NCBI GenBank assembly: GCA_046715155.1
Contig: JBKJZI010000236.1
Coordinates: 1-54,332 of the forward strand
DNA from: Chthonomonadales bacterium
Lineage (GTDB): Bacteria > Armatimonadota > Chthonomonadetes > Chthonomonadales > CAJBBX01
Length of the DNA: 54,332 nt
Direction of reading: 5' to 3'
Shown: positions 1-50,900 of the stretch, in pieces
Layout: every line of letters begins with the position of its first letter
How positions within the stretch are numbered: position 1 is the stretch's first letter
The notes under the pieces: generated by a model
Database searches by the model: none
The model's input: the letters and a program-made list of their open reading frames with translations, nothing else
Told to the model about the DNA's origin: nothing
Translations under genes and position numbers: made by a program

Positions 1-1211
1 CTGAATGCGCGCCGGAGCCGCTGGATTCCGAGCATACGCTGTTCATCCTCTATACCTCCGGCTCGACCGGCAAGCCGAAGGGAATCCAGCACACGACCGC
101 CGGATACCTGACCGGAGTCTACGCGACCACCAAGTGGGTTTTTGACCTGAAGGAAGACGACATCTACTGGTGTACGGCGGACATCGGCTGGGTCACCGGG
201 CACTCCTATATCGTCTATGGTCCGCTGGCGAATGGGGCGACTTGCGTGATGTACGAAGGCGCGCCGGATACGCCGGAGCGCGACCGGTTCTGGAAGATCA
301 TCGAGAAGCATAAGGTCACTATCTTCTACACGGCGCCGACGGCGATTCGGACCTTTATGAAGTGGGGCGACGAGTATCCGGGGCGGTGCGACCTGTCCTC
401 CCTCCGGCTGCTCGGTTCTGTTGGCGAGCCCATCAATCCGGAAGCCTGGATGTGGTACCAGGAGCACATCGGCTGGGGCCGCTGTCCCGTCGTGGATACC
501 TGGTGGCAGACGGAGACCGGGCACATTCTGATCACCCCACTCCCCGGAATCACCAGCACGAAGCCCGGTTCGGCGACCTTCCCCTTCCCTGGAATCGAGG
601 CGGACGTAGTGAACGACCGCGGCGAATCCGTGCCGCTCGGCGGGGGCGGTTACCTGGTCATCAAGAAGCCGTGGCCGGGAATGCTTCGCACGCTGTGGGG
701 AAATGACGAGCGTTACCGCGATGTCTACTGGAGCCGATTTCCGGGAGTGTACTTTCCTGGCGATGGGGCGAAGCGGGATGACGAGGGCTACTACTGGCTG
801 CTTGGCCGCGTGGACGACGTGATGCTGGTGGCCGGCCACAACATCAGCACCATGGAGGTGGAATCCGCGCTGGTGGAGCACCCGGCGGTCGCCGAGGCCG
901 CGGTCATAGGCAAGAAACACGACATCAAAGGCCAGTCCCCCTGCGCATTCGTCACCGTCCGCGAGGGATTCCAGACCGGCGATGCGTTGGCCGATGAGCT
1001 CAAGGCCTTCGTCGGCAAAAAGCTCGGCGCCGTGTGCCGCCCGGACGATATTCTCTTCACCGCAGACCTCCCCAAGACTCGCAGCGGCAAGATCATGCGC
1101 CGATTGCTGAGAGACATCGCCGAAGGCCGCGCCCTTGGGGATACAACGACGCTCGCCGACCCCGCCGTAGTATCCGGCCTCAAAGAAAAGTACGAATCTG
1201 AGGAAGGCTAA
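1..1211 (+). CDS. acs: acetyl-CoA synthetase (AMP-forming), last ~400 codons; the 5' end lies upstream of the window
   Basis: The frame is open from nt 3. The translation contains [24 protein letters not shown] (AMP-binding signature), WWQTETG and the C-terminal [14 protein letters not shown]. Stop TAA at 1209-1211. ORF-track entry 246..1211 is only the part after an internal Met. Confidence 0.93.
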
Positions 1212-1217
1212 ACCGCA

Positions 1218-2711
1218 GTGTCCGAGCGACGACCACACGAAAACTGTTATTGGGTAGACGAAGCTTTGCTCGCTGGTGAATACCCGGGGGACAAGGATGC
1301 CGGTAAGGCGCGCGCAAAGATCGGAAGCATCCTGGACGATGGCGTCACTTGTTTTTTTGATCTCACCATGGAATGCGAGCTGGTACCGTACGAACAATCC
1401 CTTAATTCTGAATCCGCCAAGCGGGGTACAGTCACAGAATACCAGAGATTCCCGGTTCCCGATCTCGGGATTCCGACGGCTGACCAGATTACTGCGATCC
1501 TTGATGCAATTCAAGCGGCGGCAAGGATAGGGCGAAAATCATATATCCACTGTTGGGGTGGCGCCGGAAGGACCGGCGTCGTCGTTGGATGTCTCTTCGT
1601 GCGGCGCGGGATGTCTGGGACCGAAGCGCTCGAAACGGTATCACGACTCTGGTCCAGTGTAGAAAAAGCGTATCGAAGTCCTGCATCGCCTCAAACCGGC
1701 GGTCAAAGAAAGGCGGTTCTGGAATGGAGCGAGCCTTCTCGCCGGATGAATGCCGGAAAGGTTAATATTAATCGGCAAACCATAAGCCGATTCCGCGGTT
1801 GTCTACTCGGTCTAGCCGTCGGTGATGCAGTGGGAACGACTCTGGAGTTCAGAAGTCCGGGAACATTTGCGCCCATCAAGGACTTGGCAGGCGGAGGACC
1901 CTTTCGTTTGTCACCGGGCGAGTGGACTGACGATACGTCGATGGCGCTTTGCCTCGCTGCAAGCTTGATTGAATGTGACGGTTTCGACCTTAAAGATCAG
2001 ATCGAGCGATATGTGCGGTGGTGGAAATCGGGTTACCTTGCATCAAACGGGCGTTGTTTTGATATCGGAAACACCGTTCGTAGAGCACTGGAATCCTATA
2101 CACAGACGGGCAATCCTGAATCTGGACCAACAGACACGATGTCGGCTGGGAATGGGAGTATTATGCGGCTGGCTCCGGTAGCAATGGCCCACTTCTATGA
2201 TCCTGGTGAAGTCGCGAGTAAAAGTGAGCTTAGCTCGCGAACTACGCATGGGACTAAGACAGCCCTGGATGCGTGTCGTTTCTTTGGCGTCTTGCTGGCT
2301 GGTGCCTTGAACGGAGCGACCAAGGATGACCTCCTAGCGCCAGACTTCGAACGCGCTTCCAAGGTCTTCACCGAATCGCCGCTTCATCCGGAGATCATGA
2401 GGGTAGTGTCCGGCTCGTACAAGACGAAGAATCCGCCGGAGATTCGCGGAACCGGTTATGTCGTGCAGTCGCTGGAAGCGGCACTCTGGGCATTTTACAA
2501 TAGTACGTCTTTCGAGGAAGGCTGTTTGATGGCTGTGAATCTCGGTGATGACGCCGATACCACTGGCGCGGTGTACGGGCAGTTCGCCGGCGCCTATTAC
2601 GGGGAAGACAGTATTCCAATTAAGTGGCGAGAGAAGCTGGCCCATAGAATCGCCATCGAGCTTTTGGCCGAGCAAGTGTACGCGCTTGCTCGGCGAAACG
2701 GCGCTGGTTAG
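1218..2711 (+). CDS. fusion protein: N-terminal Cys-based (PTP/dual-specificity-like) phosphatase domain plus C-terminal ADP-ribosylglycohydrolase (ARH/DraG family) domain
   Basis: GTG start 6 nt after the acs stop. The N-domain has HCWGGAGRTG, an HCX5R(T) phosphatase P-loop. From about aa 190, FRGCLLGLAVGDAVGTTLEF, GEWTDDTSMALC, GNGSIMRLAPV and DADTTGAVYGQFAGAYYG are ARH-family blocks. Confidence 0.85.
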   Translation: MSERRPHENCYWVDEALLAGEYPGDKDAGKARAKIGSILDDGVTCFFDLTMECELVPYEQSLNSESAKRGTVTEYQRFPVPDLGIPTADQITAILDAIQAAARIGRKSYIHCWGGAGRTGVVVGCLFVRRGMSGTEALETVSRLWSSVEKAYRSPASPQTGGQRKAVLEWSEPSRRMNAGKVNINRQTISRFRGCLLGLAVGDAVGTTLEFRSPGTFAPIKDLAGGGPFRLSPGEWTDDTSMALCLAASLIECDGFDLKDQIERYVRWWKSGYLASNGRCFDIGNTVRRALESYTQTGNPESGPTDTMSAGNGSIMRLAPVAMAHFYDPGEVASKSELSSRTTHGTKTALDACRFFGVLLAGALNGATKDDLLAPDFERASKVFTESPLHPEIMRVVSGSYKTKNPPEIRGTGYVVQSLEAALWAFYNSTSFEEGCLMAVNLGDDADTTGAVYGQFAGAYYGEDSIPIKWREKLAHRIAIELLAEQVYALARRNGAG

Positions 2712-14191: not shown

Positions 14192-15271
14192 TTATGGATT
14201 CGGGCTCAGAGAGCGTTGGCGGCGCGGGGCCTTTTTGATCTCGCAGCCGAACGCTTTGGTCTCCGGCGTGGCGACGGGTTTGCCCGCGAGAACGGAATCG
14301 AGGGCGTCCTTCAGGTAGCGCTGTTTGACGGCGGCGGGATCCTGATTGTCATCGATAGAGCCGCTATAGACCGCGGTTCCTTTTGCATCCACCACCCAGA
14401 CGGTCGGAGTGAACTCAACGGCGAATCGGTTCGCGAGGCTGTTCCGCATATCGCGCGCCACCGGGAAGCCGATCTTACGTTCTTCCGCGCGCGCTTTGAT
14501 CGCCACGGTCCGTTCGCCCTGGTTGGGATAGAGCCCGAGGAACGCCACGTCTTTGTAGGCCGGATCTGTGGCGAGCTCAGATAGGCGCTCCTCATACGCC
14601 TTCGTTACAGGACAATCCACGCTGAGGAAGAGGACCGCTGAAACCTTTTTGCCGGCCGGAAGCAGGGTGGCGGTCTTTGCGTTGACATCCTTCACCGAAA
14701 AGCTTGGGACCGGCTGGCCGACCTTGCCCTTCCAGTTGGAAAGCAGCAGGGCGAGGTTTTCGCCGTGGCGGGTGGTGAAAGCGCCGCCGGTGCGGTCGAA
14801 CTGGGCGTTGACATTGCGGTCGATGTGGGTGATTGTGCCCGTAGTTCCGATCACGAAGGTAACACGCGCGGCGCGGCCACTGGGCTGCAGAACGCCATAG
14901 GCTTCGCTCATCTTCTTGTCGGAATCGGCAAGCAGTGGGAAGTTCAGCATCTCCTTCTCGTGGAACGCTTTCTGGGCTTCCACGGTGTCGGTGCTGATTC
15001 CGAATACGACGGCGTTACGCTCCTGAATGCGGCCCATCACGTCCCGGAGGGCCTTAACTTCGCACGTTCATCCAGGCGTCCCGGCGCTGGGATAGAAGGC
15101 AAGCACAACGCGCTTGCCGCGGTAATCACTGAGCTTCTGGAATTTGCCGGAATGGTCGGCCATTTCAAATTCCGGCGCTTTCTGGCCGACTTCCAACTCC
15201 GCGCCCTTGGCGCCGGGCGCCAGGGCCAGCGTGCAGATTATGGCCGGAACGACCCCTCGCAATGAGATCAT
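14192..15271 (-). CDS. candidate selenoprotein: exported Bcp-type peroxiredoxin (TGA at the peroxidatic position, 15068-15070) fused to a TlpA/redoxin-like thioredoxin-fold domain
   Basis: ORFs 15068..15343 and 14192..15040 share one frame. Read-through gives VVLAFYPSAGTPG-[TGA]-TCEVKALRDVMGRIQERNAVVFGISTD, the Prx active-site block. ATG 15271 follows AAGGAG and starts a signal peptide, MISLRGVVPAIICTLALAPGAKG. The second domain has SVDCPVTKAY and the C-terminal FGCEIKK. Confidence 0.7.
15028..15064 (-). promoter_or_regulatory. candidate SECIS-like stem-loop downstream of the peroxiredoxin TGA
   Basis: RNA UGCG-AAGUUAAG-GCCC-UCCGGGACGUGAU-GGGC-CGCA forms two 4-bp helices separated by an 8-nt bulge. 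It starts 4 nt after the UGA. Drawn by eye only and not scored against a bSECIS model. Confidence 0.2.
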
Positions 15272-21836: not shown

Positions 21837-23141
21837 ATGAGGTCTGCCGTATTTGCGCTATCGACAGTGGTCGGTTTTTTCGCTTTTGGCCAGTCGTCGC
21901 GAGCCGAACAAGAGGCTCCGGCAACTCCGGAATCCTTGACCGCGAAAATCGAGACGCTGCGGCCTAAACAGCTCGTCTGGAGAGAGATCGGCTGGAACCG
22001 GTGCCTGCTCGATGGGCTGAAACAATCGCGTGAGCAGAAAAAGCCGGTGCTGCTCTGGGCGTTCATCAACGCGGATCCGCAAGGGGAGCGGTGCTGAGTG
22101 TTCGCAGGAGCTGCCCGTGAGGCGGTCTTCTCCAACCCGACGGTGATCCGTCGGCTGAACGCCGAATTCATTCCGGTTTCGGTCAGCGCCGCACGGATGC
22201 ATACACCGCCGCAAGATATTGAAGGGCGTTTGCTCCAAGCGGCCGGTCGCGTCGCGCCCGCTCCACAGGGAATCGCCGTGTTGAACTCCGACGGGCAGCC
22301 GCTCGCCTGGACCCTGATGTTCGACAGCGACTCCGCGGTTCTCGACTTTCTGGACTACGCGAAGCGCCGATTCCGGGAGTATGGCGACAGGTCGCGGCCA
22401 TTCGAGAGCGAGCGATTCCAGCGCTTTCCTTCCATGCGCGAGCCGGATGCCGCGTACACGGGCGGGTTACGCGCTCCGGCAAGTCATCCTCAAGGGGAAG
22501 CGTGTCCTGGCCGTCCCCAGCATCCGAAGGGCACGCTCCGGGTGCAGGTTATCGGGCGCGCTCTGGACGACCGCGGGCAGCCCGGCGCGGATACGCTCCA
22601 CCAATCGCAGTACGTTCAAGACCAGTTCGAGATTCCGGTGCCGATGCAGCGGCTGATAGCCGCGGCGCTTTCCGGCGCGGAATTCGGCCCAATCCGCGTT
22701 CCGGATGGTTTCGCCCGGATGCTCGTCTTCCACGCTTTCCTGGGGCAGATCGACGTCCGTCCGCTGGAGAATCCGAATGGGGGCCATTCAAAGATAGCTG
22801 TGTACGAGTTCTGGGCCCAGCGAACGAGTGGGAAGGACGGAAAGTCAGTCCTGCGGCTAGATGGAACCTCTCACCTTGTTACCGATGCTGCACCGCAAGG
22901 CGAAATGCAGCACTTCCGACACTCAGTGAAGCTCACGTGGGAAGGGTTCCTGGAACTGGATGGAAACCGGATTACTCGCCTGATACTGTCCGGCGAAGGC
23001 ACGGAGCGATTGACATGGAACGCGCCGCAGCCACCCACAGGAACTCTATCAGAGGTCGCTTTTCTTCCCGCCGGCCGCTCTATCAACTTCGATGGAAAAG
23101 TGCGCTACGGATTGATAGGCAAGCCGACTGGTAGCGATTGA
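21837..23141 (+). CDS. candidate selenoprotein, exported; thioredoxin-like N-domain with in-frame TGA (22095-22097) plus ~340-aa domain of unknown function; paralog of 49130..50350
   Basis: ORFs 21837..22097 and 22098..23141 are contiguous in one frame. The first has a signal peptide and ends ...KKPVLLWAFINADPQGERC-[TGA]. The second has no RBS, spacer or signal peptide and continues VFAGAAREAVFSNPTVIRRLNAEFIPV. Confidence 0.65.
22111..22125 (+). promoter_or_regulatory. candidate SECIS-like apical hairpin
   Basis: CUGCC-CGUGA-GGCGG: a 5-bp stem including one G-U, with a loop 19-23 nt after the UGA. A stronger 7-bp hairpin, CCGACGG-UGAU-CCGUCGG, lies at 22137-22154. Neither was scored against a model. 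Confidence 0.2.
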
Positions 23142-25894: not shown

Positions 25895-26719
25895 ATGAAA
25901 CGAAGTGGTTTTACTCTGATCGAGCTGCTCGTGGTTATCGCGATTATTGCCATTCTCGCCGCAATCTTGTTCCCAGTTTTCGCTCAGGCAAGGGAGCAGG
26001 CGCGCTCCACCTCGTGCCTGTCAAACGTGAAGCAGATAGGCCTCAGCGTCAAAATGTACGCAACGGACTATGACGAGGCGTTTCCGATGGGAACTTACAA
26101 CGGTCCCCGCAACTGGGAAGTCAACATGGACGTGCCGCAGCAGAACCTGGGGTGGAATGACTGCTGGGCCGATCCCGTGTCTGGCGGTCCGATGAGATGG
26201 CTGGGATTTAACCCTGGAGACGGCGGCCCCAACTATGTTGGTTGTGGCTACGGCGGAGAGTTTTACCGGACGCTCATGACAATACAGCTCGGCCCCTACC
26301 AAAAGAACAAACAGATCTGGTACTGCCCCTCCGACAAGTACCGAACGCCGAGCCCGCAGAACATCACTACCGGAATGCAGTCCTACCAGTGGTTCCCGAA
26401 CTGGATCTACAACGGTTGCTGCGGAATCGACGTCCGCTATCCGGAAGGGTTCATTAACCTGATCTCGGACAACCCGTCGGAGAAATCGGACCGGGTGGCG
26501 GAGCGAATGCTCTTCACGGAGCGCGGTACGTTTGGCTGGGACGGGGCGGACGCCCAGAACGGTGCCTGCCAACCGTGGACAGATCGTCGCGGAATCTTCA
26601 ATCACCCGCGCGGCTACAATGCCATCTACTTCGACGGTCACGCCAAGCTGGTCCCGTACGGCCGGAAGTGGCGCACGATTCCGGCATCCGGGTGGGGCAT
26701 CGGCTGCCGGCCGCAATAG
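25895..26719 (+). CDS. prepilin-type N-terminal cleavage/methylation domain protein, DUF1559 family (type IV pilin-like)
   Basis: [29 protein letters not shown] (class III signal, G-F-T-L-I-E) and the C-terminal YFDGHAKLV motif. Confidence 0.92.
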
Positions 26720-32504: not shown

Positions 32505-35500
32505 TCAGGCGACCAACTGTTCCAGGGGCTCCGTGTCGTCACAGTGAAGGGCGAGTGCGACGGCGCGGTCCAACGACAATGCTGCGCCCGCGGCCCACGC
32601 TGCCGCGAAGTCCTCCTCCCGCAGCTCCGCCTTCATCGCGCGGATGTCCAACTCACGGAGGCTCCGCGCACGCTCACCCAATGGAATCCCGAGCTTGGCT
32701 TGGGCGGATTCCGCCGCCGCCATGAGCTTCGCCGCGGTGTACGGCTGGGACTCGCAGCGGGCCACGTTTCCCAGACTCGCGATGGTCTCCGCCATACCGG
32801 CTTTGTCGCCCAGGTCGCGATTCATGTGAAGGCTTTGCTCGAAATGCTCCCTGGCGCGGCGAAGGTCCCCCTGGCGCAATCTCACTTCGCCGATATTGTG
32901 ATGGAGTAAGGCTTCGCCCCAACGGTTTCCCAGCTCTCTGAATAGGTCGAGGCTGTGCTGGTAACAGACGTACGCAGGGCGGAACTTGAGCTGCTCGAAT
33001 GCGGCGCTGCCTTCGTTGTTGAGGACTATCGCCGCCTGCGACCGGTCGCCGAGCTGCTCGAATAGCTGGCGGCTCCGGCGATAGTAGTCGATGGCAGTAA
33101 GGTGGTCATCCTGGTCCTGAGAGATACGGCCGAGGTTGTTCAGGCAGGCTGCTTCCCCCCATCGATCTCCCATCTTCTTACGAAGGTCCAGGCAGAGCTC
33201 GTAGTTCTCCCGCGCCGTTCGGCTATCGCCGCGATCACCCGCCAATACGCCGAGATTATTGTAAGCCTCCGCCTTAGCAGATGCGTCACGGAATCGCTTC
33301 GCGAGGTTCAGACTGCTTGTCAAGGCGGATTCCGCGCACTTCTGATCTCCCAAATGATAGGCCAGCACGCCCAGTCCGTTGAGCGCTCTGGCTCGCGTGA
33401 TTGTTGGCTCCTGGGAACCGGCAAGGGCGACTTCGAGCCACTGACGGCCTTCACCGACGTAACCGCGCACGAACCAGAAACGCCAAAGTGCGGCCGCCAG
33501 TCGCAGACCGATCTCGTCGTTTGTAAACCGTGACAGCGCTGCTCGGAAGTTGTCGTGTTCCATCTCGATGCGGGTGTACGCCGAAGTCGAATCCGCGCTT
33601 CGGAATGACGACTCAGCCGATTCCGCTATCTGAAGAAAATGCTCGGCATGAAGACGATAAAGCGACCTGCGATCGGCTTCATCCAGCATTTCGTCCGTAT
33701 ACTCCCGAAGTGTTTCGAGAATGCGGAAGCGCATATCGTCTTCAGCGAGAAGCTCGGTAACAATGAGCGAGCGCTGCACCAGCGCGTCAACGAGCTCGAA
33801 GGCGTCCGGTATCCCGCACACCTGCTGCGCCTGCTCCAGGGTCCATGTCCCGCGAAAGACCGAGAGTTGTGAATAGAACCGAGCCATGTCCGCCGGCAAG
33901 AGGTCGTAACTCCAGGCAATCGCTGATCTTATGGATTGGTGTCGGGGTTCTACGTTCTTCTTGCGACTCACCAGGAAACTCAGCCGCCGCCCCAACTGGC
34001 TGAGCATTTGCGTTGGGCTGATCGATTGCGCCCTGGCTGCGGCCAGCTCGATAGCCAGAGGGACTCCTTCGAGCTTTTCACATATCGCGGCGACGACCGG
34101 CGCATTGCGCGACGTGATTTGAAAGTCCGGGCTTACGGCCTGCGCGCGGTCGACGAACATCTGTACGCACGCAAACTCCATCAGCCGGTCCGGCGTGCCG
34201 GGTCGAGACGGTATGGGAAGGGGCCTGAGGGGAATGACGACTTCGCCTTGCAGATCGAGCGGTTGGCGAGAAGTGATAAGGCAGGTAAGCGTTGGCGCCT
34301 TCTGGAGTAAACCCCAGACCCACTCGGCCGCCTCTGGCTCGAGGTGCTCGAAGTTGTCGAACACGACAAGCGCTGGAGCGCCCGCCAGCGCGTTGACGGT
34401 CATCAGCTCTAAGTCTCCGACGGGTGAACGCGGAACGCCTAGCGCATTTGCGAGCGCGTCAGGAAGGGAGCGCGCGTCATGGAGATCCGCCAGCGGGACG
34501 AAATAGACCCGCTGGGCATAATCGGCGGAGATACGGTGGGAGAGCTCCAGGGCCAGCCTGGTTTTCCCCGCGCCGCCAGGGCCCGCAAGCGTCACCAGCC
34601 GCTCGGCTCCTTGCTGGAGGGCTTCCAGAAGGCGCTGCAGTTCAACCTCACGGCCAAAGAATCGTGTGAGAACCAGGGGCAGGCGTACGGGTTCGGGTGA
34701 TTTCGATGCCTGCTCCGGTTTCGGCAAATCCTCAGCCGGCGTGCTCGCGACAACGCTGCCGGGTGGTCGAGTCGCGCGGTAAGCTGGATCCCGCCGCACG
34801 AGGATTCCGGTTTGCAGCCGAATCAGCTTCGTTAGCTCGACTATCTCCGGACTGGGGCGTAGGCCGAGATCGCGACGGAGAATGCGGGACAGTCGGCGAT
34901 ACTGCTCCTGCGCGTCATGCGGCCGGCCGAGCTTCAGGTATAGCCGCATGAGATCATAGTGCGCTTCCTCGGAGTCATGCGCAGCGGAGATGGCCCGCAG
35001 TCCAAAGTCGAGGGCATCCTGGTAGGAGCCTCGTTCCTCGAGGTGCAATACGATCTGCCTGAGGGCCTGAAGATGCATCACCAGAAGTCGCTCGCGCGAG
35101 ACGAGCACCCAGTCGTCGTAGCAGCCCGGAAGGAATCCGCCATGATACATCTCGACTGCCCGAAGATGAAGTTGGAGTTTTTCGTCGGGATCGTCCGTCG
35201 ACTTAGCGCTCTCGATGAGGCTCAGAAACTCAGCGACATCGGTCGTGATGCTAGAAGGGTTAAGGCGGGCGAAACGCCGAGGAGCAATGAGGAAAGTCGA
35301 TAGGGGAACTCCCGGGGGTTCTAGCTGCTTGCGAAGCGATGTCAGCGCCTGGCTGAGGCTCTGGCTGCCGCGATCCCATTCGGAATCGGGCCAGAATAAC
35401 TCCATAAGCTCATCGCGGGAGTGGTCTTCCCTCAGGTTGTAGGCGAGATAGGCGAGGAGGAGACCGGTCTTGCGCGTCTGGAAGCGAACGATCTCGCGCC

Positions 35501-35555
35501 CATCGCTAATCGCCCTTAAGCCTCCAAAAAACTCGATTCTCCACGGCGTAATCAT
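32505..35555 (-). CDS. BTAD/SARP-type transcriptional regulator with NB-ARC-like ATPase and TPR domains
   Basis: The N-terminal winged-helix plus BTAD region has LLAYLAYNL and YHGGFLPG. Walker A is LAGPGGAGKTRLALE. The C-terminal ~400 aa are TPR repeats. The start is set at ATG 35555 (MITPWRIEFFGGLRAI); the ORF is open to 35780. Confidence 0.85.
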   Translation of the reverse strand: MITPWRIEFFGGLRAISDGREIVRFQTRKTGLLLAYLAYNLREDHSRDELMELFWPDSEWDRGSQSLSQALTSLRKQLEPPGVPLSTFLIAPRRFARLNPSSITTDVAEFLSLIESAKSTDDPDEKLQLHLRAVEMYHGGFLPGCYDDWVLVSRERLLVMHLQALRQIVLHLEERGSYQDALDFGLRAISAAHDSEEAHYDLMRLYLKLGRPHDAQEQYRRLSRILRRDLGLRPSPEIVELTKLIRLQTGILVRRDPAYRATRPPGSVVASTPAEDLPKPEQASKSPEPVRLPLVLTRFFGREVELQRLLEALQQGAERLVTLAGPGGAGKTRLALELSHRISADYAQRVYFVPLADLHDARSLPDALANALGVPRSPVGDLELMTVNALAGAPALVVFDNFEHLEPEAAEWVWGLLQKAPTLTCLITSRQPLDLQGEVVIPLRPLPIPSRPGTPDRLMEFACVQMFVDRAQAVSPDFQITSRNAPVVAAICEKLEGVPLAIELAAARAQSISPTQMLSQLGRRLSFLVSRKKNVEPRHQSIRSAIAWSYDLLPADMARFYSQLSVFRGTWTLEQAQQVCGIPDAFELVDALVQRSLIVTELLAEDDMRFRILETLREYTDEMLDEADRRSLYRLHAEHFLQIAESAESSFRSADSTSAYTRIEMEHDNFRAALSRFTNDEIGLRLAAALWRFWFVRGYVGEGRQWLEVALAGSQEPTITRARALNGLGVLAYHLGDQKCAESALTSSLNLAKRFRDASAKAEAYNNLGVLAGDRGDSRTARENYELCLDLRKKMGDRWGEAACLNNLGRISQDQDDHLTAIDYYRRSRQLFEQLGDRSQAAIVLNNEGSAAFEQLKFRPAYVCYQHSLDLFRELGNRWGEALLHHNIGEVRLRQGDLRRAREHFEQSLHMNRDLGDKAGMAETIASLGNVARCESQPYTAAKLMAAAESAQAKLGIPLGERARSLRELDIRAMKAELREEDFAAAWAAGAALSLDRAVALALHCDDTEPLEQLVA

Positions 35556-35840
35556 CGTGCCGGAGTCCCTCAACAGAAGAAACGCGCGGATCTCAGGTCC
35601 ATCCAGACCCACGGCATGAGGACGCACGCTCATCGATAACATTCTCGATACGTCACGTTCACGGTAGGCTGGATCAATTCCTCTGAATTCGCAAGATTCC
35701 GTCACGCCTCGGTCTGTCCCGGCTTCTTGTGAAGCGCCCCCAATGAAGTGTGGCGAACTGAATGATCGAGTAGACGGCATCTCCGCTTCGGCGTGCCGGC
35801 CCCTGAGCTACCTCGAGGGTAACCGGCGGATTCCGGTAGG

Positions 35841-36597: not shown

Positions 36598-37728
36598 TTA
36601 ACCGATATCCCGGCCCTGCCCGCCGTCACCGATTGCCGCCGGTTCTTTGAGAAGCTCCCGCGCGCGCTGACGGAGCCGATCCAAGGGCTGATATTCAATG
36701 CCTGTTTCGGGGCGGGCCATCCATGCAGTCCAGCCATTGCAGCCCGCAGCGCCCAGAAGATGGGCGCCAACGAAATGGATACTCCCGCGTGCGCCGTTAG
36801 AAGATATAGTGCCGTCAGCGTGGATCAATCCGAATAGTGGTCCGCTGCCAAGACGCAGCCGGTCCCCTTCCCTTACGAGACCCAATTCCAACAGGACGGA
36901 GAAAGCGACACGCTCCGGCTGAGGCGGAGGCGGCGCTAGGGATTCATCCGGCGCGGGCGTCACGGATTCGATCCTCATGCGGCCAGCGTCAACATAAGCG
37001 TCCTCGCGTTCGATTCCGATAAACCGGCGGCCCAGCCGCTTTGCGACCGACGCCGTGGTGCCCGCTCCTAAGAAAGGGTCCAGAACGGTATCGCCAGGAT
37101 TTGTGCAGCTTCGGATGATGCGATGCAAAAGGGCTTCCGGCTTCTGGGTGGTGTGGACTTTACCGTTCGCGTCGCGGAGTCGCTCTCTCCCCTGGCAGAT
37201 CGGCAGATACCAATCGCTGCGCGCCTGCAGATCTTCGTTGCCGGCCTTGAGCGACCCGTAATGAAATGTATAGCGCTTCTGTTCCGCCGACTTCTTCGCC
37301 CAAATCAGAGTTTCGTGCGCGTTGCAGAATCGGACCCCGCGGAACTGCGGCATGGGATTGGATTTGACCCAGCAGATGTCGTTGAGAATCCAATATCCGA
37401 GGTCCTGAAGGATGGAGCCGACTCGGAAGATGTTATGGTAGGTGCCGATAACCCAAATAGTCCCCGTGTCTTTCAACACGCGGCGGCATGCCAGGAGCCA
37501 CTCTCGGGTGAACCTATCGTAGGCTTCAAAGCTCATGAACTGGTCCCAACCGTCATTCACCGCATCAACGCGCGACATATCGGGCCGGTAGAGCTCTTTG
37601 CGAAGCTGAAGGTTATACGGAGGGTCCGCAAAGACGAGGTCCGCGCACTGCTCAGGGAGCGACTGCATAACCTGAATGCAGTCGCCCTGGATGATGTCAC
37701 CGCCGTCCATTTCGATCTTCACGTTCAC
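36598..37728 (-). CDS. ccrM: CcrM-type beta-class N6-adenine DNA methyltransferase (predicted GANTC specificity); no adjacent endonuclease
   Basis: LVFADPPYNLQL (motif IV DPPY), VLDPFLGAGTTASVAKRLGRRFIGIERE (motif I). There are long collinear blocks I recall from Caulobacter CcrM: DAVNDGWDQF, YDRFTREWL, RRVLKDTGTIWVIGTYHNIFRVG, NPMPQFRGVRFCNAHETLIWA, KRYTFHY, TQKPEALL. The CcrM-specific C-terminal domain is also present (GSIHFVGA...CNGWTAW). Confidence 0.9.
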   Translation of the reverse strand: MNVKIEMDGGDIIQGDCIQVMQSLPEQCADLVFADPPYNLQLRKELYRPDMSRVDAVNDGWDQFMSFEAYDRFTREWLLACRRVLKDTGTIWVIGTYHNIFRVGSILQDLGYWILNDICWVKSNPMPQFRGVRFCNAHETLIWAKKSAEQKRYTFHYGSLKAGNEDLQARSDWYLPICQGRERLRDANGKVHTTQKPEALLHRIIRSCTNPGDTVLDPFLGAGTTASVAKRLGRRFIGIEREDAYVDAGRMRIESVTPAPDESLAPPPPQPERVAFSVLLELGLVREGDRLRLGSGPLFGLIHADGTISSNGARGSIHFVGAHLLGAAGCNGWTAWMARPETGIEYQPLDRLRQRARELLKEPAAIGDGGQGRDIG

Positions 37729-46818: not shown

Positions 46819-48465
46819 TTGTTTGTCTGGTTGGAAGGAGCGGAATTTCCTTTGGAAGCAATCGCAACGCGCGTCGACTCGAACGCGCCCGGATTCCGGG
46901 ATAATGCTGCGTTTCATGCGAAGCTGGCGACGGAGCTAAAGCAGCGGATTACAGAAGCGCACAAGGGTGGAGGTGCGGAATCCGTCGCGAAGCATACTGC
47001 CCGGGGCAAACTGCTGGCGCGAGAGCGGATTGACTCACTCATCGACCCCGGCTCCCCTTTCCTGGAATTCAGCGCACTGGCCGCCTATGAGATGTACGAG
47101 GACGAAGCGCCGGGTTCGGGAATCGTCACCGGAATCGGATCGGTGCAGGGGCGAGAATGCATCATCGTCGCCAACGACGCCACAGTCAAGGGCGGCACCT
47201 ACTTCCCGATCACCGTCAAGAAACACCTGCGGGCGCAAGAGATCGCCGAACAGAACCATCTGCCCTGCATATACCTGGTCGATTCCGGCGGCGCGTACCT
47301 GCCACTTCAGTCCGAGGTCTTCCCGGACCGCGAGCACTTCGGGCGTATTTTCTATAACCAGGCGCGCATGTCGGCGCTGGGGATTCCGCAGATCGCGGCG
47401 GTGATGGGTAGCTGCACGGCGGGCGGCGCCTACGTGCCCGCAATGTCAGACCAGACGATCATCGTTAAAGGCACCGGCACCATCTTTCTTGCCGGACCGC
47501 CTCTCGTGAAGGCCGCAACGGGCGAGGAAGTCTCAGCAGAGGAGTTGGGAGGGGGAGAGACCCACACTAAGATAAGCGGTGTAGCCGATTACCTGGCGGA
47601 GGACGACGCGCACGCCCTTTCGTTGGTGCGCGAAATTGTCAGTGGACTCAATAGGCCCAAACGCATTGATCCGCCCGCCGACATTGCACCCCCGGAAGAA
47701 CCGCTCTACGCGGCCGAAGAGATCTACGGAATCCTCCCTAAAGACCGCCGCCAGCCGTTCGAAGTCCGCGAGGTCATCGCCCGCCTGGTGGATGGCAGCC
47801 GATTCCACGAGTTCAAGCCGTTATACGGTCCCACCCTCATCTGCGGATTTGCGCGCTGGATGGGCTATCCGGTCGGAATCCTCGCGAACAATGGCGTGCT
47901 ATTTTCCGAGAGCGCGCTAAAGGGTACGCATTTCATCGAGCTCTGCTGCCAGAGGCGGATTCCGCTCGTCTTCCTACAGAACATCACGGGATTCATGGTG
48001 GGGAAAAAGGCAGAACACGAAGGGATCGCCAAGCACGGCGCAAAGATGGTTATGGCCGTATCCAACGCCGAAGTACCCAAGTTCACAGTGATCATCGGCG
48101 GCTCGTTCGGAGCAGGCAACTACGGGATGTGCGGCCGCGCCTTCGGTCCCCGCCAGCTCTGGATGTGGCCCAACGCCCGCATCTCCGTCATGGGCGGCGA
48201 GCAAGCCGCGAATGTCTTATTGACCGTAAAGAGGGACCAGCTTGACACGAAGGGCACGAAGATGACGAAGGCGGAAGAAGAGGAACTGACGGGGCCGGTA
48301 TTGGAAACCTACGAGCGCGAAGGCAGTCCCTACTACTCCACCGCCCGCCTCTGGGACGACGGAATCCTCGACCCGATCGACACCCGAATGGCAATCGCCC
48401 TAGGAATCTCCGCCGCCTACAACGCCCCCATCCCCCAAACCCGCTTCGGCGTCTTCCGGATGTAG
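46819..48465 (+). CDS. acyl-CoA carboxylase carboxyltransferase (beta) subunit, methylcrotonyl-CoA carboxylase-like
   Basis: [83 protein letters not shown] and the C-terminal RFGVFRM. The start is uncertain (TTG 46819 or downstream TTG codons). Confidence 0.9.
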
Positions 48466-48501: not shown

Positions 48502-48771
48502 ATGAGGAACTTGACTCAGGAGGAGAAGGAGTCGATTGCGCGGCGGGCAGACCAGATGTACGATGAGAAGATCAAGCCGCTAGAGGCCGAATTTGAGGGA
48601 AAGATTGCGTCCGTGGATCTCGACACGGGTGATTACGAGATCGCTGATACTCCACTCCTGGCGACCACGAAACTCCGCGAGCGGCGACCCAATGGAAACT
48701 TCTTTGCGTTCCGAATAGGCTATGACGCGGTTTATGCCATAGGCGCGAGGCTGCACCGGCGGAGTAAATGA
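48502..48771 (+). CDS. small hypothetical protein, upstream partner of the retropepsin-like protease
   Basis: 89 aa. GKIASVDLDTGDYEIADTPLLAT...FFAFRIGYDAVYAIG. The stop overlaps the next start (ATGA). Confidence 0.7.
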   Translation: MRNLTQEEKESIARRADQMYDEKIKPLEAEFEGKIASVDLDTGDYEIADTPLLATTKLRERRPNGNFFAFRIGYDAVYAIGARLHRRSK

Positions 48772-49133
48772 TAAGAGGCGTGGTGGGCGGCCTTCAAGCA
48801 TTAGTGAGCCTGGAAGTCATTGATGCGTACGGTCGACCGCTTTCGTTGGAGGGAATCGTCGATACAGGGTTCGCCGGATATCTAACACTGCCTTCGGACC
48901 TTATTCAAAAGCTCCAGTTGCGTTGGACTCACCGCATGTACTCTCGTTTGGCGGGGAATATACCGATGCTGTCCGAGGTTTACGAAGCTACGGTCCACTT
49001 CCGCGATGTCAAGGAAAGAATCGAAGTTTTGGAGATGGAAGACGACATCCTGCTCGGCATGTCACTCTTGATCGGAACCGAAATTCGAATCCAGGTGGAG
49101 GAAGGTGGACTTGTGGAAATTGAGCCTTTATGA
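48768..49133 (+). CDS. clan AA (retropepsin-like) aspartic protease
   Basis: IVDTGFAGYLTLPSDL (D-T-G active-site triplet). 121 aa. ATGA overlaps at both ends. Confidence 0.78.
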   Translation: MIRGVVGGLQALVSLEVIDAYGRPLSLEGIVDTGFAGYLTLPSDLIQKLQLRWTHRMYSRLAGNIPMLSEVYEATVHFRDVKERIEVLEMEDDILLGMSLLIGTEIRIQVEEGGLVEIEPL

Positions 49134-50350
49134 ACGTCAGGATGTTCGGAATCATCGCCAGCTTACTCGCTTCTGCAATCCTGTGGGCCAGCGGGGACAC
49201 GATATCGGAACTGGAGGGGAAGATCGCCGCGGTATTGCCGACCGCCGAGGAAGATGCTTTTCTGCAGATTCCGTGGCGGATGAATGTGCTTCGAGCCCGG
49301 GCGGAATCTGCTCGGACGGGGAAGCCATTGTTCATCTGGTCTATGAACGGGCATCCTTTCGGCCACACTTGAGCGAACGGTCTGCGGAACCGGCGGTTGA
49401 CGCTGAATCATCCTGAAATCCGGCGAAAGCTCACGTCGGACTTCATTCCCACGGTAGCGCCCAGCACCGATCCCTCTTTCAGCGACAGCGAGGCTGGAAA
49501 ATGGTTCTTCCGCATGGCCGATACGAACAAGGAGTCGGGCGGGCATTACCAGGGCTTTTACATCGTTAACGCCGACGGAATTGGTCCCACACGCCATTTT
49601 GATCCGATCGGCCATTACCCCACCGGTCCGCTGCTCAAGTTCATGGACGACGCTTACAGAGTCGTCCGGGCGAAACCAGTATCCAAGACCGAGATTTCGG
49701 AAAGCCAGCTCAGCCTGCCGCCGATGGCCCGCCCGGACCCGTCGACTTCCGTGCTTCGGATCGTGAACCGCATTGTTGGCGCACCTGCCGACCCCCACCT
49801 TCTCAACAATGCGCCGGACCGAGACTTCATCTGGGTTTTGCGCGAAGAGGTCAAGGAAATCGTACAACTCGCGCGCCAGGGAGGTGAATTCGCTCTTCCC
49901 CGACCGATGGTCGGCCGTCTCGTCCGCTATCACCTCGTGGACAACCTGGGCGGCCGAACGCAGTTCTTCATGGGTGCGCGGGAAGTCAAGCGGGCGGATT
50001 TCCGGGCACGCGTCCTGCGCGTAGGACCACGATTCCTAGAGCTAAGTCTGAACGGAACTTACGCGTCCACTCAGGAAAAGAACGCTTTCGGAATCGAAGG
50101 CGAGATCCAAGGTGAATTGAGAATTGACACTCAAACGCTGCGGATCACGCGCCTTCGCGCATTCGCTACATCACAGGCGTGGGGCGGTCCGGTCAATGGG
50201 GCTGAGACACCTCCCCCGGGAAAGTTCAAGATAATCCACGCCCTGACCGAGGCAGACGACGTGATCGCCCGCAACGTCCCTCCCGCCTACGGCTATTCCA
50301 CAACCTACCTCGACGCCGGCTACCGGAGTCTTCCGAAGTACACCCCCTAA
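49130..50350 (+). CDS. candidate selenoprotein, exported; paralog of 21837..23141 with in-frame TGA at 49370-49372
   Basis: ORFs 49130..49372 and 49397..50350 share one frame, with only sense codons between them. Read-through gives GKPLFIWSMNGHPFGHT-[TGA]-ANGLRNRRLTLNHPEIRRKLTSDFIPTV. The TGA-to-FIP spacing (24 residues) is identical to the paralog. Signal peptide MNVRMFGIIASLLASAILWASG. Confidence 0.65.
49374..49395 (+). promoter_or_regulatory. candidate SECIS-like hairpin
   Basis: CG-AA-CGGU-CUGCGGA-ACCG-G-CG: 6 bp with a small internal loop, starting 2 nt after the UGA. Drawn by eye only. Confidence 0.2.
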
Positions 50351-50411: not shown

Positions 50412-50900
50412 ATGTACGCAATGGAATGGCAAGCCGGCATAATCGAGCGCGCGGCCAATACGCTGGCCTATTGGATAGAGACCACGCCGGAGGATAAGTT
50501 GGGCTGGTGCCCGGCGGCCGACGCGTCTTCGAAGACACGATGCATCAAGGAACAGATGCAGGAGTGCATCGGCCTGAATAGAGGCGTGGCGGCCAAACTT
50601 CGAGGAGATGGCGCAGCGCCGTCCAGCGACCAGCCCAGGGCTGAAGACCAATCACTTCTCGTTCGAGAGATCGCCTCCAGCGGCCGAGAGCTCGCCGAGG
50701 CCGTTCGCAACACGAAGCCGGAGGACCTCGGGCGGGAACACGACCTCGGATTCGGCCCTTTCCCGGCGGCCTTTCTCATCGAAATCGCCACCGGAAACAT
50801 GTTCTACCACGGCGGCCAGCTCAACTTTATCCAGACCCTTTATGGAGATACCGAATTCCGCTTCCCGGGGCCGGATTATAACCCCTTGAAAGACGCCTGA
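50412..50900 (+). CDS. DinB-family (DinB_2-like) four-helix-bundle protein
   Basis: C-terminal FYHGGQLNFIQTLYGD resembles the DinB H-x-G-Q helix. 162 aa. Confidence 0.6.
   Translation: MYAMEWQAGIIERAANTLAYWIETTPEDKLGWCPAADASSKTRCIKEQMQECIGLNRGVAAKLRGDGAAPSSDQPRAEDQSLLVREIASSGRELAEAVRNTKPEDLGREHDLGFGPFPAAFLIEIATGNMFYHGGQLNFIQTLYGDTEFRFPGPDYNPLKDA

Follow-up and report, generated by a model that had tools for sequence, protein, structure and literature searches.

We analysed a stretch of 54,332 nucleotides from a Chthonomonadales bacterium (contig JBKJZI010000236.1 of assembly GCA_046715155.1), referred to in its entirety as the window, which contains a gene interrupted by an in-frame TGA codon. 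Two open reading frames (ORFs) follow one another on the forward strand: 49130..49372, made up of 80 codons and the TGA at 49370-49372, and 49397..50350, which begins with TTG and encodes 317 amino acids. The original prediction described the two as sharing one frame with eight sense codons between them, and this was borne out; the TGA is followed by GCG AAC GGT CTG CGG AAC CGG CGG before the TTG is reached, and the frame is intact on either side, with no second stop and no frameshift. Reading through the TGA gives a coding sequence (49130..50350, + strand) that ends with TAA at 50348-50350 and specifies 406 residues, including selenocysteine (Sec) as residue 81 if the TGA is read in this way, and the translation matched the one quoted previously. 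The protein begins with a probable signal peptide, MNVRMFGIIASLLASAILWASGD (49130..49198, + strand), which was read from the sequence; a hydrophobic segment also occurs at the N-terminus of those relatives for which this part could be reconstructed, and the window protein is probably exported by this route. It continues with a thioredoxin-fold domain of the DsbH/Thioredoxin_7 type (approximately 49262..49684, + strand), which carries the motif GHPFG-H-T-U-ANG, and ends with a beta-rich domain (49727..50347, + strand) in which the motifs RYHLVDN, FRA..AWG and PPPGKF are conserved and which has no Pfam or NCBIfam match. The comparisons described below make it very probable that 49130..50350 is one gene, that its product is a secreted protein some 400 residues long, and that Sec is inserted at TGA 49370; the codon lies in a conserved column for which Cys forms exist among the relatives.

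Selection on the gene was assessed by comparison with its syntenic ortholog, L003, which is 80% identical and for which the synonymous divergence (dS) is 0.7-1.3. The ratio of nonsynonymous divergence (dN) to dS was 0.12 over the 80 codons that precede the TGA and 0.11 over the C-terminal 297 codons, which shows that both halves of the window gene have been under long-term purifying selection. In the same comparison dN was 0 for the eight codons that separate the TGA from TTG 49397, and at the protein level these codons are identical in L003 and in a further relative, L001. These findings bear on the possibility that the locus comprises two genes, one for a secreted peptide of 80 residues ending at the TGA and one for an independent protein of 317 residues starting from TTG 49397. 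This is how gene callers annotate the region, and TTG is a permitted start. However, the position at which translation could first restart in frame beyond the TGA varied among 88 relatives, between codon +4 and no start at all within 80 codons; ATG was missing from this stretch in 45 of the 88, and no start codon downstream of the TGA was conserved across them. Strand 1 and helix 1 of one and the same thioredoxin fold lie on either side of the TGA, and the full-length Cys forms are single proteins. Expression of the downstream ORF by itself from TTG 49397, an alternative that had been raised with the original prediction, is therefore not supported by the variable start position and the intervening codons, and we regard two separate genes as very unlikely. 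TGA also serves as the ordinary stop codon for 12 of the window's 39 genes, among them the one directly upstream, and therefore the code has not been reassigned. Taken together, the selection on both halves, the variable starts, the use of TGA as a normal stop and its location inside one fold lead us to reject the two-gene, pseudogene and recoded-genome readings.

The TGA was found at an identical column in 90 informative homologous loci, with a single exception, L007, in which the codon is TGC. A stop codon that arose by chance is ruled out by this conservation. In the closer relatives L001-L005 (45-80% identical) the motif reads GHP[LF]GHT-TGA-ANG, the TGA occupies the shared column and the frame is open to either side of it; in the more distant L006 and L008-L012 the motif reads GHPLGCT-TGA-NNG. 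The TGC of L007 (protein P0009) gives C-T-C (GCTC) at this position. The residue two positions before Sec is Cys in most relatives, giving a C-x-U arrangement, His in the clade to which the window copy belongs (the H-T-U clade) and Ser in L034. A scan of genomes, with one genome per species, gave 417 loci that were confirmed by tblastn, of which 80 were kept. TGA was present in 79 of the 80 species genomes kept, the contig from the 80th being without that part of the gene. These genomes come from Armatimonadota, Obscuribacterales, Planctomycetota, Verrucomicrobiota, Poribacteria, Omnitrophota and Polyangia.

Searches of protein collections gave a complementary picture. An initial search returned mostly fragments that start just past the TGA column, along with one fragment that ends exactly at it and two full-length calls, one with Trp and one with Cys at the column. 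A word-index search with the family alignment yielded only 14 matches, and a profile was instead searched exhaustively against 1.84 billion representatives of 50%-identity clusters (E<=0.001). This search matched 1437 representatives, and of the best 150 about 141 have their start at the TGA column or shortly past it, the pattern that truncated gene calls would give. Full-length Cys forms were rare (CTC in P0009/P0028, P0113 and P0156, and CDDC in P0080), and more than 90% of the family members would use Sec and not Cys. Apart from these, a few members lack redox residues altogether (P0110, P0040, P0154, P0160 and P0165, with SVE, CVA, AAG, AGS and VTN), and P0110, in which they have been lost, is fused to a Ser/Thr protein kinase. 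With the exception of this kinase fusion, all of the family members that were looked up are named 'hypothetical protein'.

The Trp seen at the column in L001 stems from a JGI gene call (164..1453) made with TGA translated as Trp; calls of this type can pass for non-Sec homologs. This one public call is also what speaks for a reading of the TGA as something other than Sec, whether through a reassigned code (Trp or Gly) or through near-cognate read-through with insertion of Trp, Cys or Arg. However, the same call has also run past the true TGA stop of L001 and acquired a false tail of 19 residues, and the frequent use of TGA as a terminator in the window, as in the gene directly upstream of this one, is at odds with reassignment. 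Furthermore, the family spans several phyla, and in full-length relatives the TGA residue is replaced by Cys, not by Trp. A covarying hairpin at the position of a SECIS (selenocysteine insertion sequence), as described in the next paragraph, would also be unexpected under simple read-through. We therefore consider it highly improbable that a residue other than Sec is inserted.

In order to describe the RNA downstream of the TGA across the family, 86 distinct sequences were anchored without gaps at the UGA, with its U counted as nucleotide (nt) 1. It can be seen that the family shares a helix in which nt 17-21 pair with nt 27-31, and often nt 16 with nt 32, enclosing a 5-nt loop of CGUGA, CGUGC or CGGCG. 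For the helix nt 16-21/27-32, 85.4% of the cells were paired, as against 28-41% when the partners were slid by 1-3 columns, and the covariation score was 0.552 as against 0.05-0.13; no shuffle out of 500 came up to these values. Pair 18-30, for example, is GC in 53 sequences, CG in 28 and AU in three. Bacterial SECIS elements are expected to have a loop of 3-9 nt with a G in its first two positions, an upper stem of at least 4 base pairs (bp), an energy of -7.5 kcal/mol or lower and a spacing of 16-37 nt (PMC13188914). The family hairpin fits this consensus, with a small apical loop that lies 18 nt from the UGA and in which a G is followed by U or G. Hairpins of the H-T-U clade were weaker overall than those of the C-x-U clade.

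Constraint at synonymous sites just 3' of the TGA had been put forward in the original prediction as the signature of a SECIS element embedded in coding sequence. When pairs of sequences sharing an amino acid were compared, the fraction using the same codon was 0.63 at codons +1 to +10, compared with 0.44 upstream of the TGA and 0.45 at codons +11 to +25. Arg at +7 is encoded by CGT in 60 of 79 sequences, and Ser at +9 by TCG in 29 of 39. The test was thus positive at the level of the family, and the 5-6 bp helix that covaries in register with the UGA supports, again at the level of the family, a SECIS embedded in the coding sequence. We conclude that the assignment of the TGA as a Sec codon is supported by the conserved column, the Cys homologs, the covarying helix, the synonymous constraint and the purifying selection.

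The read-through protein of the window had no Pfam match at E<=1 and no NCBIfam match, and its fold was approached through its relatives. Among the N-terminal domains of 25 members, Pfam matches below threshold were obtained to Thioredoxin_7 for nine (best E 0.0012) and to DsbH for four. The family N-terminal profile matched PDB entries 3f9u_A (E 0.0033) and 3ira_A, a DUF255 protein (E 0.0067), and in both alignments Sec was placed opposite the first Cys of a CxxC motif. AlphaFold models were built for the ortholog P0003, with Trp at the Sec position (predicted local distance difference test score, pLDDT, 78.8; predicted template modelling score, pTM, 0.78), and for the Cys homolog P0009 (pLDDT 76.9, pTM 0.77); both can be trusted to a reasonable degree. 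The P0009 model has its elements in the order beta-alpha-beta-alpha-beta-beta-alpha with C-T-C just ahead of helix 1, and a Foldseek search with it returned the DsbH-domain structure 7tkv_A (E 3.2e-4), then 3ira (probability 1.0) and AGR2. Nothing significant was returned for the P0003 model in the Foldseek search, probably because its active-site loop is poorly modelled (pLDDT <50 at residues 83-92). In place of a CxxC motif the sequence is H-T-U-A-N-G in the window and C-T-U-N-N-G in most relatives, with no Cys at position +3.

A distant paralog of the gene is located at 21837..23141 (+ strand), with a TGA at 22095-22097 in the motif GERC-U-VFAG and a hairpin at 22110-22126 that has the loop CGUGA and lies exactly in the family register. 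In a BLASTP alignment of the two window proteins the TGA columns are aligned (E 2e-7, 26% identity over 189 amino acids), and hhalign matched the family profile to the downstream part of the paralog with a probability of 96.8% (E 2.7e-10) over 271 columns; therefore the homology runs through the C-terminal domain. A metagenome scan with the paralog found a single close relative, the ortholog L093, which is 89% identical and keeps the TGA, and in which a U-G pair of the hairpin has become C-G. These results agree with the original prediction that the two genes are old paralogs that have both kept the TGA. As to the details of that prediction, the distance from the TGA to the FIP motif is indeed equal in the two proteins, with 23 residues in between. 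The KP strand, which had been placed 15-17 residues upstream of the TGA in both, is 17-18 residues upstream in the paralog and 15-16 in the gene studied here, and its predicted position is therefore approximate.

When the whole window was scanned for pairs of ORFs that share a frame and are interrupted by TGA, only three had a coding-like context. The third of these, which had also been predicted, is real: a gene for a peroxiredoxin-thioredoxin fusion on the minus strand (14192..15271), with a TGA at 15068-15070 in the context PSAGTPG-U-TCE. This context is the known Sec-peroxiredoxin motif PxxxTxxU, and a hairpin of -11.9 kcal/mol starts 17 nt past the UGA. The presence of three such candidates within 54 kb is good indirect evidence that Sec is decoded by the organism.

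A number of observations weigh against our interpretation, several of which concern the RNA of the window copy itself. The position of the SECIS hairpin in the family register is 49386..49400 (+ strand; nt 17-31, with CGGCG at nt 22-26 as the loop), and here the window copy breaks the best-covarying pair of the family with a G18·G30 mismatch. Pairing at 18-30 fails in just two of the 86 sequences, these being the window (G·G) and its nearest relative L003 (U·C). The canonical hairpin of the window is reduced to 3-4 contiguous pairs and -1.7 to -2.6 kcal/mol, and the RNA downstream of the TGA is no more stable than shuffled sequences (z +1.16 over 61 nt and z -0.17 over 40 nt). L003 has a 40-nt stem-loop starting from the UGA (1790..1829) with an energy of -18.2 kcal/mol (z -3.4) and the loop GUAACCG, whereas its counterpart in the window (49370..49409) has -10.5 kcal/mol (z -0.17). 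The difference is due to two substitutions specific to the window, C30 to G (Phe to Leu) and C36 to G (synonymous). The same pair of substitutions also completes a shifted 5-bp hairpin, CGGCG-GUUGA-CGCUG, at nt 22-36 (49391..49405, + strand), which is an alternative candidate for the SECIS. With -7.6 kcal/mol and a 5-nt loop that begins with GU, 23 nt from the UGA, this hairpin falls within the published limits (PMC13188914), and it is indistinguishable from shuffles; it shows no covariation, and the comparative support for it is limited to a 4-bp version in L003. Support for a structured RNA 3' of the TGA is thus strong for the family, in which the helix covaries, and weaker for the window copy, in which the best pair is broken and the stability is no greater than that of shuffled sequences.

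These features of the RNA raise the possibility that the family truly contains Sec and that the window gene is a decaying or poorly decoded copy, in which the SECIS has eroded, the UGA mostly terminates translation and the gene is heading for loss or for replacement of Sec by Cys. Several findings speak for such decay: the two substitutions leave the family helix weakened, and likewise the stem that starts from the UGA and has such a high stability in L003; pairing at 18-30 is missing from the window and one other sequence; and the fold energy of the window does not differ from that of shuffles. However, the reading frame is intact on both sides of the TGA, and dN/dS against L003 is 0.11-0.12 at a dS of 0.7-1.3. 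In addition, it is the very same substitutions that complete the 5-bp hairpin with the GU loop at a permitted spacing, and the H-T-U clade as a group has weaker hairpins than the C-x-U clade, yet the TGA has been kept in all six of its members. We therefore judge decay of the window copy to be unlikely, and retain the view that its TGA is decoded as Sec.

Further points on the same side of the balance come from outside the RNA. No gene for tRNA-Sec, SelA, SelB or SelD lies within the 54 kb window; Rfam at the gathering threshold found only tRNA-Ser in it, and ARAGORN found no tRNA-Sec. The window copy has His-Thr-Sec in place of Cys-x-Sec, and there is no Cys in the whole protein. The C-terminal domain has no significant structural match, with Foldseek giving weak START-like or lipocalin-like matches at a probability of 0.1-0.2, and the function that we propose for the protein is read only from a resemblance in fold. 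Lastly, the gene overlaps an upstream ORF (48768..49133, + strand) resembling clan AA (DTGF) aspartic proteases, and this adjacency recurs in one other locus only, the syntenic L003.

The upstream ORF contains a VDTGF motif and matches TIGR03698 at E 1.6e-12 with a score of 47.7 bits, short of the cut-off at 57.35, and its TGA stop overlaps ATG 49130 in the sequence ATGA. The original prediction had spoken of translational coupling to the protease gene. The overlap is real, but a conserved link between the two genes was not seen, and clustering of the ORFs around 87 loci gave no neighbouring gene that was conserved. With the pairing found only in L003 and no conserved neighbour, we treat the coupling as incidental. 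The region 48502..49133 also holds an ORF of 89 amino acids, and this ORF and the protease-like ORF have ATGA overlaps with each other and with the selenoprotein gene. The pair is 46-48% identical to its counterpart in L003 (48% for the protease), compared with 76-92% for the flanking genes, which suggests a fast-evolving cassette of two genes.

Downstream of the selenoprotein gene is a gene of the DinB_2 superfamily (50412..50900), the sole other type of neighbour that recurs; besides the window it was seen only in L003 (2823..3308) and L004 (1638..1931). Elsewhere in the window, the best named relatives of a carboxyltransferase (46819..48465) are from Chthonomonadales, Capsulimonadaceae and Armatimonadaceae, at 73-80% identity. 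There are also DUF1559/prepilin-type (25895..26719), sulfatase and rhamnosidase genes; the carboxyltransferase and the DUF1559/prepilin-type gene together make Armatimonadota the most likely origin of the DNA. Unrelated to the selenoprotein gene are an N6/N4 DNA methylase with a RAMA domain (36598..37728) and a large BTAD-AAA-TPR regulator (32505..35780, - strand).

The window protein can be compared with several known systems. In the bacterial thioredoxin-fold selenoproteins (Sec-thioredoxin with UxxC, Sec-peroxiredoxin with TxxU, and the DsbA-like and DsbG-like proteins), as in the present family, the UGA marks the N-terminal end of helix 1, with Sec where the nucleophilic Cys would otherwise stand, and the hairpin lies directly downstream within the coding sequence. 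Unlike these proteins, the family has no Cys at +3, the partner being Cys at -2 or, in the window clade, His, and it has an additional conserved domain of about 200 residues after the thioredoxin fold. The closest fold is that of DsbH/DUF255 (PF03190) and Thioredoxin_7 (PF13899), represented by PDB 7tkv, 3ira and 3f9u, with which the family shares the KP-hydrophobic strand. However, all of the matches to these models are below the Pfam thresholds, and the proteins concerned use the cysteine of a CxxC motif and have other C-terminal partners. The CxC isomerases, such as YphP/BrxB of B. subtilis (PDB 3fhk), resemble the C-x-U and C-T-C forms of the family in having two redox residues with one residue between them at the start of helix 1; YphP carries a CxC motif. 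In this case the Foldseek match was weak (E 0.28, probability 0.57) and no sequence similarity was seen, and the window protein lacks the first Cys.

Among selenoprotein models the best match was to the VPGUxxT models NF041383 and NF041382 (hypothetical protein OS_HP5), both families being uncharacterised and thioredoxin-like. NF041383 was matched weakly by 14 of the 25 family N-terminal domains (best E 9.5e-4), and by the paralog with E 0.028 and 14.1 bits against a curated cut-off of 275. The differences are considerable: the window protein has no match to these models, the motif is G-[C/H]-T-U-[N/A]-N-G and not VPGUxxT, and about 14 bits compares with a cut-off of 275. A prokaryotic selenoprotein catalogue of 2026 that lists 119 families contained no match by way of its listed Pfam, TIGR or NF models, and its C-x-U entries are tied to other domain models (PMC13188914). 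BSepDB was compiled from families reported previously. No description of the family was found in the open-access papers searched, although absence there is no proof. The family appears to be uncatalogued, while the recoding mechanism itself is ordinary bacterial Sec recoding. In families from the GOS ocean-metagenome survey, the balance of Sec and Cys is the reverse of the predominance of Sec seen here (PMC2398784). Some Planctomycetes, a phylum in which family members were found, are reported to possess the complete Sec machinery (PMC4807772).

By analogy with the established bacterial mechanism, SelB carrying Sec-tRNA(Sec) would be recruited by the stem-loop immediately 3' of the UGA. Across the wider family, the covarying 5-6 bp helix at nt 17-31, with its 5-nt loop C-G-U/G-N-N and G23 in the loop, would have this role; in the window copy, where the family helix is degraded, its likely substitute is either the shifted hairpin at nt 22-36 (loop GUUGA) or the longer stem that starts from the UGA. 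The mature protein would then consist of a thioredoxin-fold domain with Sec at the position of the nucleophilic first Cys, preceded by the signal peptide in the precursor and followed by the beta-rich domain, and it would probably act as an extracytoplasmic selenol-based oxidoreductase whose C-terminal domain presumably binds the substrate. The C-x-U relatives could form a selenenylsulfide. In the window clade there is His at -2 and no Cys in the mature protein, from which it would follow that this is an enzyme with one Sec that is recycled by an external reductant. The insertion of Sec, the hairpin that serves it, the export and the chemistry are what we infer from the comparisons made here.

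We put at about even the chance that these proteins form a large undescribed family, in which a secreted thioredoxin-fold domain with C-x-U (H-x-U in the window) is joined to a new C-terminal domain and which extends over several phyla. If it is indeed uncatalogued, the family would be a widespread addition to the bacterial selenoproteome and would correct hundreds of split 'hypothetical protein' annotations. It is found in phyla that are not mentioned in the selenoprotein review or in the database paper of BSepDB, and it may have been missed by searches for Sec/Cys pairs because its Cys forms are so scarce. Since Cys almost never substitutes for Sec, the family offers a natural test case for why Sec is kept. 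If the family reading is true, the window clade would be a natural one-Sec enzyme, and the H-T-U proteins, with no cysteine in the mature form, would isolate the extracytoplasmic chemistry of a lone selenol. For the organism itself, which resembles Armatimonadota of soil, the three Sec candidates in 54 kb point to a substantial use of selenium.

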